Part shown: positions 3,162-7,000 of the stretch, piece by piece
Position numbering within the stretch: position 1 is the stretch's first letter
How the letters are laid out: each line of letters opens with the position of its first letter
Assembly: GCA_963737445.1 (NCBI GenBank)
Contig: CAVTSO010000025.1
Location: 116,870-180,869 of the forward strand
Direction: 5' to 3'
Source of the DNA: an uncultured Actinomycetes bacterium
Lineage (GTDB): Bacteria; Actinomycetota; Thermoleophilia; Gaiellales; JAICJC01
DNA: 64,000 bases
Notes under the pieces: model-generated
The model's database searches: none
What the model was told of the DNA's origin: nothing
Seen by the model: the letters and a program-made list of their open reading frames with translations, nothing else
Translations under genes and position numbers: made by a program

Positions 3162-3733
3162 GATGCCAGCATGCTATCCAGCCGCTCGCGCAGCGCATCC
3201 AGCGCTGGATCGAGCGACCAGCCGGCCAGATCGCGGTCGCCTGCGATGTTCGATACCGCCCGCAGCATTGTGCACGGGATCGCTGCGGTCATTGCCGCTA
3301 AGGCAACAGCGTATCCCTCCATCTCCTCGAGCACCGCCCGCGGCTCCGCCACGCGGCGCGATCGAGCCTGGTCGAGCGACTCCGATGCGCGTGCCACCGA
3401 GAGCGCCAGCCCGTCCTGTCCGTCCAGCGCGGCCTCGTCGCTGTCGGCGAACCCCAGCTCGGCCGGCGTCTGGTCGCCGACCCCGACGCCGTGGCAGCGA
3501 ACCAGCCCGGGGGCCAGCACCGCGCCGATCGGGGCCAGCTCGGCGTCGTAGCTTCCGGCCACCCCGGCCAGCACCACCCGCTGTGGCCGGTGGCGGGCGA
3601 TCGCGTGCATGGCGCCCACGCCGGCCCGCGCCAGGCCGAACCCGCAAAGCTCCAGCGGCGCGTGCGTGAGCGCCAGCCGCCGCGCCTCGAGCTCCGTCGG
3701 GACGAGCACGAGCGTGACGGGCGCTCTGCTCAC
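3158..3733 (-). CDS. mqnB: futalosine hydrolase (MqnB, nucleoside phosphorylase fold)
   Basis: C-terminal 191 codons of track ORF 3158..4120(-). The GTG at 3733 overlaps the nadA stop (GTGA). The sequence is PNP/MTAN-like (VVLAGVAGSY, LEEMEGYAVALAA). Its stop overlaps the mqnD start. Confidence 0.7.
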   Translation of the reverse strand: MSRAPVTLVLVPTELEARRLALTHAPLELCGFGLARAGVGAMHAIARHRPQRVVLAGVAGSYDAELAPIGAVLAPGLVRCHGVGVGDQTPAELGFADSDEAALDGQDGLALSVARASESLDQARSRRVAEPRAVLEEMEGYAVALAAMTAAIPCTMLRAVSNIAGDRDLAGWSLDPALDALRERLDSMLAS

Positions 3734-4663
3734 ACGATCTCCACCATCCGCTCGATCGCGCCGCGTGCCCGCGCGGCGACATCGTCGGGAACAGTCACCG
3801 GGTACTGCATCTCCCGCAGGCTGTCGCGCAGCTTGGGCAGGGTGATCTGCTTCATGTAGCGGCACACCGCCCGCTCCGACATGGCGTAGAACCGCTTGTC
3901 GGGCGCCTCCTTGTGCAGCCGGTGCAGGATGCCGGTCTCGGTTGCGACTACGAACTCGTTGCGCTTGCGAGGATGTCGCGTGGCGCACCATGCCCTCGGT
4001 GGACAGCACGTGGGTGGTCTCGGCCAGCTTGGCATCGTGCGCGGCCGCGTACAGGCACTGGCTGGCGCAGCCGCACTCCGGGTGGATCAGCAGGTCGGTC
4101 CCGGGCCGCTCCTCCATCATGCGGCTGACGTCCTGCGGTGCGGATGCCGGCGTGGACGTGGCACTCGCCCGGCCAGATCTTCATGTGCCGGCCGGTCAGC
4201 CGCTCCAGGTAGGCGCCGAGGAACATGTCCGGCAGAAACAGGATGTCGCGGTCCTCGGGCACCGCTTCGATGATGGCGCGCGCGTTCCCCGACGTGCAGC
4301 AGTAGTCGGACAACGCCTTCACCTCGGCCGTGGTGTTGACGTAGCTGACAACGACCGCGCCCGGATTCTCCTGCTTCCAGCGCGCGAGCGCCTCGGCATC
4401 GATGCTGGCCGCCAGCGAGCACCCTGCCTCCAGGTCGGGGATCAGCACGGTGCGGTTCGGGTGCCAGGATGGCGGCCGTCTCGGCCATGAAGTGCACGCC
4501 GGCAGAACACGATCACGCCGGCGTCGGTGGCGGCCGCCTGTTGCGACAGGCCCAGCGAGTCGCCGACGTAGTCGGCCACGTCCTGCACCTCGGCGACCTG
4601 GTAGTTGTGGGCCAGGATCACGGCGTTGCGCTCGCGCGCCAGCGCGCGCACCTCGTCCTGCAT
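3730..4663 (-). pseudogene. nadA: quinolinate synthase NadA, disrupted by at least 4 frame changes
   Basis: Recognisable NadA blocks sit in different frames: [54 protein letters not shown] (ORF 4442..5170); [11 protein letters not shown] (ORF 4117..4497); [17 protein letters not shown]...[13 protein letters not shown] (ORF 3948..5006); [16 protein letters not shown]...[13 protein letters not shown] (ORF 3158..4120); [26 protein letters not shown]...ERMVEIV (ORF 3730..4035). Confidence 0.8.
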
Positions 4664-4683
4664 GGTCTCGATATCGGGTGCGG

Positions 4684-5532
4684 TCAGGATGCTGATGGTG
4701 GTACCTCCAGTGCGATGTCGAGTGCGCGCACCGAGTGTGTGAGCGCTCCCACCGAGATCGCGTCGACCCCGGTCTCGGCCACCTCGCGGATCGTGTCGAT
4801 GGTGATGCCGCCGGACGCCTCCAGGCGCGCGCGGCCGGCCGTCGTTGCCACCGCCCGGCGCAGCTGGCGCGGGCGGCATGTTGTCGAGCAGGATCACGTC
4901 GGCGCCGGCGTCGAGCGCCTGCTGCAGCTGGCCGAGCGTGTCGACCTCGACCTCGACCGAGCGCGCCGGGATTGCGCAGGCGGACGCGCTCGACTGCGGC
5001 CGGCACGCCGCCGGCGACCGCGCACGTGGTTGTCCTTGATCAGCACGGCGTCGTGCAGCCCGGCGCGGTGGTTGGTGCCGCCGCCGCAGCGCCACGGCGT
5101 GCTTGTCCAGCGCGCGCAGGCCGGGGGCGGTCTTGCGCGTGTCCAGCAGCTGCACGCCGGTGCCGGCCACCAGCGTCGGCGTAGCGCCGTGTCGTCGTGG
5201 CGATGCCGGACATGCGCTGCAGCAGGTTGAGCGCGGTGCGCTCGCCCGTCAGCAGCGCCCGCGCCGACGCGTGCAGCCGGGCCACCACCTGGGCCGGCTT
5301 CGATGCGGTCGCCGTCCGCGGCGAGCCGCTCCATGCGAGCCTGCGGGGTCGAGCTCGAGCGAGCACGGCGAACGCCTGGTCGAGCCCGCAGATGACGCCC
5401 GGCCTCGCGCACCACGACGTCGGCGCTGCCGCGCAGATCGGCGGGCACGATCGCGTCGGTGGTGACGTCGCCGCTGCCGACGTCCTCGGCCAGGGCGCGG
5501 GCGATCACACTGTCTGGGGCTGGGTCGGGCAC
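4684..5532 (-). pseudogene. nadC: nicotinate-nucleotide pyrophosphorylase NadC, disrupted by at least 6 frame changes
   Basis: NadC blocks alternate among all three minus-strand frames: MPDPAPDSVIARALAEDVGSGDVTTDAI; [40 protein letters not shown]; [25 protein letters not shown]; [23 protein letters not shown]; [28 protein letters not shown] hand-translated C-terminal block [55 protein letters not shown] ends at the TGA at 4684-4686. Confidence 0.8.
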
Positions 5533-7000
5533 GGCATCCTGTGGGCGAGGGCGGGGTCTTCGGAGGGGTAATCGAGCCGCACGTGCGGCGCCACGGCTCT
5601 CGTGCCGCTGCGAGCGCGGCGGCGTGCGATCAGCTGCGCGACGTCACGCGGGTTGGAGGCCGGCTGGTCGGCGAGCCACTCCAGCATCCGCTCCAGCCCG
5701 GCGGCCTCCCGCAGCGGGCCGGCATCGCTCCACATCCGGCGCCGCAGCGCGGCCAGCGGCGCGCGGGCCAGCGGTCGCCGTGGCGGGTCGCGCCTCCACC
5801 TGAACCGGGGCGGCGTCCAGCCCGGCGGCGACCGCGCGGTGGGAGAAGACGAAGCACTCGAGCAGCGAGTTCGATGCCAGCCGGTTCGCGCCGTGCACGC
5901 CGCTGGACGCGCACTCGCCGCACGGCGTAGAGGCCGGCGATGTCGCTGGCGCCGTCCAGGCCGGTGGCGATCCCGCCCATCAGGTAGTGCGCCGCCGGCG
6001 ACACCGGCAGCCGGTCGCGGGTCAGATCGAGGCCGGCGCGCGCGACGCCCTCGACCAGGTTCGGGAACCGGTCGCGCACGGCGGCGGCGTCCAGGTGACC
6101 CAGCGTCAGGTAGCTGGCCTCTCCGCCGGCAAGGCGGTTCTGGATCTCCCGGGCCACGACATCGCGAGGCGCCAGCTCGCCGTCGGCGTGCACGTCCAGC
6201 ATGAATCGCCGGCCCCGCTCGTCGACCAGGTGGGCGCCCTCGCCGCGCACTGCCTCGGAGATCAGGAAGGCCCGGTCGCCGACCGCCAGCGCCGTGGGGT
6301 GGAACTGGACGAACTCCATGTCCGAGATGGTCGCCCCGGCCCGGCGTGCGATCGCGATGCCGTCGCCGAGCGCTCCGGGCGGGTTGGTGGTGCGGGCGTA
6401 CAGCGCGCCGGCGCCGCCGGTGGCGATCAGCGTCATCCGCGATCGCAGCGGCCGCAGCTCGTCGTGGCCGATCACCCACGCCCCGGCACAGCCGCCGCCG
6501 TCGGCGATCAGCTCCAGCATCGCCGTGTGCTCGAGCACGCTGATCAGCGGCTGGGAGCGGACACGGGCGATCAGCACCTCGGCGATGTGCTGGCCCGGTG
6601 GCGCTGCCGCCCGCGTGCAGGATCCGCCGGCGCCCGTGGCCGCCCTCGCGACCCAGCGCCAGGTGGCCGTTCGTCGTCGCGGTCGAACGGGACGCCCATG
6701 CCGCTCCAGGTCGGCCATCCGGTCCGGGGCATCGGACACAAGTAGTTCGACCGCGCGCGGGTCGCAGAGCCCGCGTCCGACCAGCATCGTGTCGGCCATG
6801 TGCTGTGACGGGTCGTCATCCGGCCCGATCGCGGCTGCGACGCCGCCCTGGGCGTAGAACGAGTTCGACGACTGCAGCGATCCCTTGCTCACCAGGGTCA
6901 CGCGTGCACCCACCTCGGCCGCCTGCAGAGCCGCGTAGAGGCCTGCCAGGCCGGCGCCGGCAACGAGCAGGTCGACCGTCTGATGGTCGTCTCGGATCAC
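5505..7000 (-). pseudogene. nadB: L-aspartate oxidase NadB, disrupted by at least 5 frame changes
   Basis: The N-terminal FAD motif DLLVAGAGLAGLYAAL and most of the protein lie in ORF 5630..7000. GMGVPFDRDDE lies in ORF 6571..6819. HGANRLASNSLLECFVFSHRA lies in ORF 5644..5898. The C-terminus LRRRMWSDAGPLREAAGLERMLEWL...HVRLDYPSEDPALAHR lies in ORF 5505..6479. Confidence 0.8.

Follow-up and report, generated by a model that had tools for sequence, protein, structure and literature searches.

Has an uncultured member of the Gaiellales lost the ability to make nicotinamide adenine dinucleotide (NAD) de novo, or does its assembled sequence only make it look so? The question is posed by a 64-kb stretch of contig CAVTSO010000025.1 (64,000 nucleotides [nt], hereafter the window), in which the three genes nadB, nadC, and nadA are broken by a series of frame changes, while the co-oriented menaquinone genes that follow them, mqnB and mqnD, are intact. 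A first-pass annotation, made from the sequence alone, had offered two explanations: a recently inactivated pathway, with dependence on NAD salvage, or a locally error-rich stretch of the assembly. Our analysis speaks against the former, in that substitutions are not in excess, nonsense codons are absent, and the spectrum of insertions and deletions (indels) is the opposite of that of natural pseudogenes. It speaks for the latter, in that the genes show neighbor-like purifying selection, the lesions have a one-base, insertion-only spectrum, and the extra bases resemble second alleles. The nadB–nadC–nadA operon is almost certainly intact in the organism, and the 21 frame changes are very probably a consensus artifact in which both alleles of the silent single-nucleotide polymorphisms (SNPs) of co-assembled strains were kept side by side.

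Frame changes in nadB, nadC, and nadA

Frame changes were detected in three ways, all concordant: a frame plot of the G+C content at third codon positions (GC3), a segmentation of the sequence by codon usage with the Viterbi algorithm, and a frameshift-aware protein-to-DNA alignment, the reference for which was the intact set of nad genes of L001, a syntenic metagenome-assembled genome of the Thermoleophilia. They place 21 frame changes in the nad genes between positions 6700 and 3967: 8 in nadB, 9 in nadC, and 4 in nadA (Table 1). The first-pass annotation had counted at least 5, 6, and 4, respectively. Every break is corrected alike in the frameshift-aware alignment, by skipping one base, and no stop codon was found along the frame thus followed in nadB, nadC, or nadA, in agreement with the earlier statement that the recognizable blocks of these genes are free of obvious stops. 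The gene order nadB–nadC–nadA–mqnB–mqnD on the minus strand was also confirmed, as was the integrity of mqnB and mqnD, in which there is no frame change. The GTGA overlap already described, which joins the stop codon of nadA to the start codon of mqnB, was seen at 3733–3730, and an overlap of the same type couples mqnB to mqnD. The lesions are sharply localized, with 21 in 2.7 kb compared with 5 in the other ~61 kb, such that their density in the patch is ~90 times that in the rest of the window. The initial 300 nt of nadB and the final 234 nt of nadA are free of them.

Removal of the extra bases restores full-length proteins. Repaired NadB scores 489.1 bits against TIGR00551 (cut-off 452.75) over model positions 2–489 of 489, which makes it a full-length equivalog, whereas the longest nadB open reading frame (ORF) as written scores 343.5 bits, under the cut-off, and covers only positions 2–353. 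For repaired NadC, the score against TIGR00078 is 327.5 bits (cut-off 198.4; positions 2–268 of 269), compared with 58 bits for the fragments as written. Repaired NadA reaches 404.7 bits against NF006878/TIGR00550 (cut-off 294; positions 4–304 of 306), compared with 77 and 145 bits for its fragments. It also carries the cysteine motifs EAGCSLA, PGECHVH, and RAVCRYM, whose three cysteines we take to be the putative cluster ligands. The product of mqnB matches TIGR03664 with 96.5 bits, which is under the cut-off of 124.7, and the gene is collinear with genes of 186–191 amino acids (aa) in the relatives described below.

The operon in close relatives

The relatives used for comparison, which were reached through a protein database plus contig look-ups, are 16 metagenome contigs of Gaiellales from independent assemblies, with 91.5–95.6% nt identity to the window; the operon is intact in all of them. 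A first alignment included six (L167, L168, L169, L164, L081, and L082) and a later one all 16. The closest, L167, is 95.6% identical in nt sequence to window positions 8136–2319 and has the same gene order, namely sigma factor, nadB, nadC, nadA, mqnB, mqnD, mntR, and mntH. The repaired Nad proteins are 96.6–97.4% identical to their L167 counterparts. In addition, repaired NadA is 96% identical to the intact 309-aa proteins P0001 and P0002, repaired NadC is 92–95% identical to intact proteins of 272–280 aa, and repaired NadB is 94% identical to the intact 495-aa protein P0241, all from uncultured Gaiellales; there are well over 100 further full-length homologues with 88–96% aa identity. Two other scans gave more distant matches: among the matches listed for a NadB fragment in a genome collection, the best was L001, at 66% identity, which served for synteny only, and among those listed for repaired NadC in a metagenome scan, the best was 72% identical. 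Exact look-ups of MqnD and of the M24 peptidase encoded in the window gave no match in the indexed collections.

The intact cluster nadB–nadC–nadA–mqnB–mqnD–mntR–mntH is found in soil Gaiellales (L167, L171, L172, and others) in the same order and with 94–96% nt identity. By comparison, the nad genes of the window carry 21 frame lesions, and most of mntR and mntH is lost through three deletions. The position of nadB varies in the clade: in loci L176–L178, as opposed to L167 and L171–L173, a short minus-strand gene precedes nadC in its place.

The extra bases resemble second alleles of silent sites

Multiple alignment with the relatives resolves the 21 lesions into 20 single-base insertions and one 2-nt deletion, near 5298, where the sequences diverge locally; each of the 21 shifts the frame by +1. 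The same alignment revealed no single-base deletion in the nad genes, and the 20 insertions, when sought in the 16 relatives, were present in none. The inserted bases, read on the coding strand, are 13 C, 4 G, 2 A, and 1 T. Ten follow codon position 3, seven follow position 2, and three follow position 1, a split that is not significantly uneven, and deliberate placement at codon boundaries was rejected on that ground. We also considered whether triplets of compensating +1 changes (e.g., 5625, 5612, and 5586) could represent retained function, and rejected this because the intervening stretches are out of frame over conserved motifs.

Where they could be reconstructed, the lesions had first been described as one-base changes in short homopolymers. 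Instead, 4–5 of the 20 insertions copy a neighboring base where ~11 would be expected (P = 0.004; P = 0.0004 in a second simulation), which is fewer than chance would give, and no run of more than 2–3 bases is involved at the lesions. Both of the examples reconstructed at that stage are relocated by the alignment. The extra C proposed at 4499–4502 is explained most parsimoniously by an extra T at 4504, TTC[T]GCC; the six closest relatives, aligned first, all have TTC GCC GGC at this place. The lesion proposed near 4464, which was thought to restore AAILHPNRTV, is actually at 4455, GAA[C]CGC, and the peptide restored is AAILAPERTVLIP.

What the extra bases do resemble are alternative alleles of the sites beside them. 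Thirteen of the 20 are synonymous alternatives to the adjacent base, compared with 3.6 expected, a count reached in 0 of 5000 simulations; among insertions that are not duplicates, 81% are synonymous alternatives, compared with 43% expected. Moreover, of the 20 extra bases, 5 coincide with an allele present in relatives at the adjacent column when six relatives are considered (P = 0.005), and 9 do so when 16 are considered (1.5 expected; 0 of 5000 simulations). That an extra base should be a silent or known allele of its neighbor is predicted by the merging of strains, and not by random mutation or random read error. Merging also predicts lesions that are patchy and run in one direction without other damage, and of the 26 breaks in the window, which lie in three clumps (the nad patch, 13.9–15.8 kb, and 43.0–44.0 kb), 25 are +1. 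In a mosaic test, switching between L167-like and L164-like alleles showed the same pattern in the patch as in its flanks.

Such a consensus could have arisen as follows. The sample would have held two very similar strains that differed by silent SNPs over a tract of ~2.7 kb, which is the size of an ordinary recombination import, so that strains otherwise identical may differ only here. A consensus or polishing step would have written every SNP as one insertion and one deletion, with both bases retained next to each other, and the same process would account for the few isolated breaks in the rest of the window. The collapsing of two alleles into one consensus has been reported to introduce indel errors and apparent frameshifts beside allelic variants (PMC8445201). 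In that case, the collapsed assembly of Trypanosoma brucei Lister 427, frameshifts lie beside true variants upon haplotype merging and the genes are intact in each haplotype, as proposed here. The difference is that the haplotypes in our case would be co-occurring bacterial strains, probably from a metagenome, to judge only from the signature of the extra bases.

Several points weigh against a merger of silent strain variants. The two-strain origin is deduced only from the silent-allele signature. The patch falls wholly within one three-gene pathway and ends before mqnB–mqnD, a pattern that selection acting on genuine lesions would produce as well; however, there is a clean gap of 678 nt inside the patch, and therefore the clean gene ends of 234–300 nt are not significant and the match between patch and operon is loose. 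Real-looking deletions in mntR and mntH next door indicate that genuine gene loss occurs in the lineage. Seven of the 20 insertions lack the silent-allele signature, and the extra A in pstB would not be silent in place of either of its neighbors. Finally, the second kilobase of very high GC content (28.3–29.0 kb) is unbroken, so that GC content alone does not explain where the lesions lie.

Selection on the repaired genes and the case for gene loss

Were the lesions real, the most natural explanation would be a very recent inactivation, in which salvage of nicotinamide, nicotinate, or nicotinamide mononucleotide suffices, nadB, nadC, and nadA decay, and the essential menaquinone genes are still selected. 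Such an event would fit the observations that all three genes of one pathway are affected, that mqnB and mqnD, in the same orientation, are free of lesions over ~1.4 kb, and that just downstream only what look like genuine deletion remnants are left of mntR and mntH. Selection on the nad genes tells otherwise. With the extra bases removed, the ratio of nonsynonymous to synonymous substitution rates (dN/dS) relative to L167 is 0.148 for nadB, 0.093 for nadC, and 0.103 for nadA, compared with 0.135 for mqnB, 0.130 for mqnD, and 0.094 for the sigma factor gene; purifying selection on the repaired genes equals that on their intact neighbors. The nad genes are 95.1–96.6% identical to those of L167 at the nt level and mqnB and mqnD 94.5–94.7%, the nad genes carry fewer window-private substitutions per kb than do mqnB and mqnD, and no premature stop was found in the repaired nad genes. 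The marks of relaxed selection in a pseudogene, that is, raised dN/dS, excess substitutions, and nonsense codons, are thus missing. Drift that lasted long enough for 21 indels should have brought many times more extra substitutions together with some nonsense codons, and none are detectable.

The lesion spectrum is equally at odds with natural decay. Substitutions usually outnumber indels in bacterial mutation-accumulation studies, and 21 indels with approximately zero excess substitutions reverse that ratio. Natural one-base insertions mostly copy the neighboring base, contrary to the extra bases here, which avoid doing so, and a random mutation would have no reason to match the silent allele of its neighbor. 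Deletions in a range of sizes, at least as numerous as the insertions, would be expected of a pseudogene; instead, there are 20 insertions and a single 2-nt deletion. In natural bacterial pseudogenes, the ratio of insertion to deletion counts is 0.76–0.94 (PMC6054270), and by our own calculation the probability of at least 20 insertions among 21 events at such ratios is ~5e-6. As written, translation of nadA would end at 4442, which would leave ~700 nt untranslated before the coupled, and probably essential, mqnB–mqnD, with a risk of polarity. No NAD salvage genes were found within the 64-kb window, which was the only region surveyed for them.

Host-adapted bacteria do genuinely lose de novo NAD synthesis, as exemplified by nadA and nadB in Shigella, through substitutions, insertion sequence elements, deletions, and relaxed selection. 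The likeness lies in the disruption of the same pathway, which would imply auxotrophy for nicotinate or nicotinamide. In contrast to the Shigella losses, however, there is no substitution signal in the window, and the spectrum is insertion-only and allele-like. Inactivation of the nad operon is therefore unlikely.

The adjoining manganese genes present a different picture. Of mntR (DtxR-type repressor) and mntH (Nramp), only remnants are left, at 1729–2330 on the minus strand. Relative to L167, 99, 339, and 908 nt are missing in three deletions, whose junctions (2318/2319, 2091/2092, and 1850/1851) each have 2–3 nt of microhomology; the intact genes of relatives encode 217 aa and 421 aa. Judged by its sequence, the manganese uptake locus looks like a genuine loss, unlike the nad lesions.

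Random sequencing error as an alternative

Errors of another origin might also have produced the patch, namely ordinary random long-read errors in a low-coverage or unpolished stretch, such as a long-read bridge in a hybrid assembly, with no connection to strain variation. This would account for errors that are local, clumped, and biased toward insertion within an otherwise accurate 64 kb, and the densest lesions (5920–4867) fall in a kilobase of 76% G+C, one of the two richest in a window of ~70–72% G+C. Residual long-read errors are reported to concentrate in homopolymers (PMC9262707). In the nad patch, however, homopolymer extension is depleted, and the lesions do not lengthen or shorten single-base runs in the manner of such errors; nor would random error be expected to insert a silent alternative to the neighboring base or a known allele of it. 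GC content was rejected as a sufficient cause, since the other GC peak is clean and the sites in nadA, pstA, and pstB are not GC-rich. Long-read assemblies with residual homopolymer indels (PMC9262707) and gene-fragmenting errors (PMC12007338) resemble the window in that single-base indels fragment conserved genes that are full-length in relatives. They differ from it in that homopolymers are avoided here, nearly all events are insertions, and the lesions are concentrated ~90-fold in one 2.7-kb patch. Random long-read error is thus likewise unlikely as the source of the lesions.

Unlikely alternatives: real tandem insertions and recoding

The insertion of both alleles in tandem could in principle be real in the chromosome, if a tract of ~2.7 kb from a sister strain had formed a heteroduplex in which both bases were retained at each mismatch. 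The window encodes a NucS/EndoMS endonuclease (NucS_N plus NucS_C; 18087–18974, plus strand), a gene that bears on arguments about indel mutation in this lineage. NucS/EndoMS is the usual alternative to MutS/MutL mismatch repair in Actinobacteria, and the organism may, as far as the window suggests, lack MutS/MutL. If true, this would represent an undescribed mutagenic outcome of mismatch processing, and a single event would have ended de novo NAD synthesis and led to dependence on salvage; we regard it as very unlikely.

It is hardly conceivable that programmed +1 ribosomal frameshifting or transcript editing bypasses the extra bases, with the genes functional as written: all 21 lesions do need the same +1 correction, but no motif is common to the sites, neither a stop nor a rare codon lies at the point of the shift, the contexts differ, conserved motifs such as ESRG near the NadB C terminus are out of frame, the insertions are absent from 16 of 16 relatives at 91.5–95.6% nt identity, and 21 new recoding sites in one operon within ~5% divergence are implausible.

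Other frame breaks and the rest of the window

The nad genes are not the only ones with frame breaks. Five others are broken as well, encoding an ECF sigma factor, a VOC/glyoxalase protein, an IS110-family transposase, PstA, and PstB (Table 1); unlike those of the nad lesions, the affected bases at these five sites were not identified by alignment to close relatives. About 45 other ORFs have full-length domain matches, including the large NAD-GDH gene, tkt–tal–zwf–opcA–pgl, the DUF255 gene, pstS, and pstC, and the earlier description of gdh, tkt, and the DUF255 gene as uninterrupted therefore stands. The glycerate kinase gene (28116–29087) was considered as a further break, on account of its two Pfam stretches, and rejected, since it is a single continuous ORF of the short form.

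Table 1. Coordinates of the nad–mqn locus, its lesions, and the other frame breaks in the window
Feature	Position	Strand	Remarks
nadB (L-aspartate oxidase), as written	5505..7000	-	8 extra bases, at ~6700, 6673, 6598, 5920, 5791, 5625, 5612, 5586
nadC (quinolinate phosphoribosyltransferase), as written	4684..5532	-	8 extra bases, at ~5402, 5361, 5343, 5174, 5090, 5022, 4965, 4867; 2-nt gap near 5298
nadA (quinolinate synthase), as written	3730..4663	-	Extra coding-strand bases at 4504 (T), 4455 (C), 4139 (A), 3967 (C)
mqnB (futalosine hydrolase), intact	3158..3733	-	PF01048; GTG start overlaps nadA TGA stop
mqnD, intact, 276 aa	2331..3161	-	PF02621, E = 1e-58
Lesion-bearing patch, 21 lesions, all +1	3966..6700	-	Mean spacing ~137 nt; longest clean gap 678 nt
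ECF sigma/DUF6596 gene, +1, extra base ~13898	13862..13925	-	Spliced protein has full DUF6596 match over break
VOC/glyoxalase gene, -1, base missing ~15194-15198	15167..15225	-	Glyoxalase_4 model positions 2-109 of 109 over break
IS110-family transposase, +1, ~15800	15757..15832	-	Break separates N-terminal and C-terminal halves
pstA, +1, extra base 42990	42963..43017	+	
pstB, +1, extra A 44020	43993..44053	+	ABC_tran domain continuous in spliced protein

The IS110-family element (15385–16522, minus strand) adjoins the broken VOC and ECF sigma genes. Being mobile and variable between strains, it could be the reason for a second local cluster of problems in the consensus. The pstS–pstC–pstA–pstB operon (39921–45411) has an oppositely oriented phoU at each side (39921–40646 and 44740–45411). 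A region called noncoding by the codon-usage model (17156–18314) contains an ORF of 341 aa (17234–18259) with a weak match to the PD40 β-propeller repeat; either its codon usage is atypical, possibly because the gene was acquired horizontally, or the ORF is spurious. A gene for an N6/N4 DNA methyltransferase (PF01555) lies at 54261–55088 on the minus strand. Rfam and tRNA scans of the window found no RNA genes.

Implications

The practical value of this locus is that it provides a diagnostic for such errors that needs no reads. Its parts are lesions that avoid homopolymers and consist of insertions only, extra bases that are silent alternatives to their neighbors, and a dN/dS that is unchanged after repair. 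Real lesions would signify an unusual, insertion-only mutational process, and de novo NAD synthesis would have been lost very recently. The nad frameshifts are, however, most likely not a real feature of the organism. Annotation of the window at face value would yield three NAD-biosynthesis pseudogenes and would score a soil lineage of the Gaiellales as an NAD auxotroph, a false metabolic inference.

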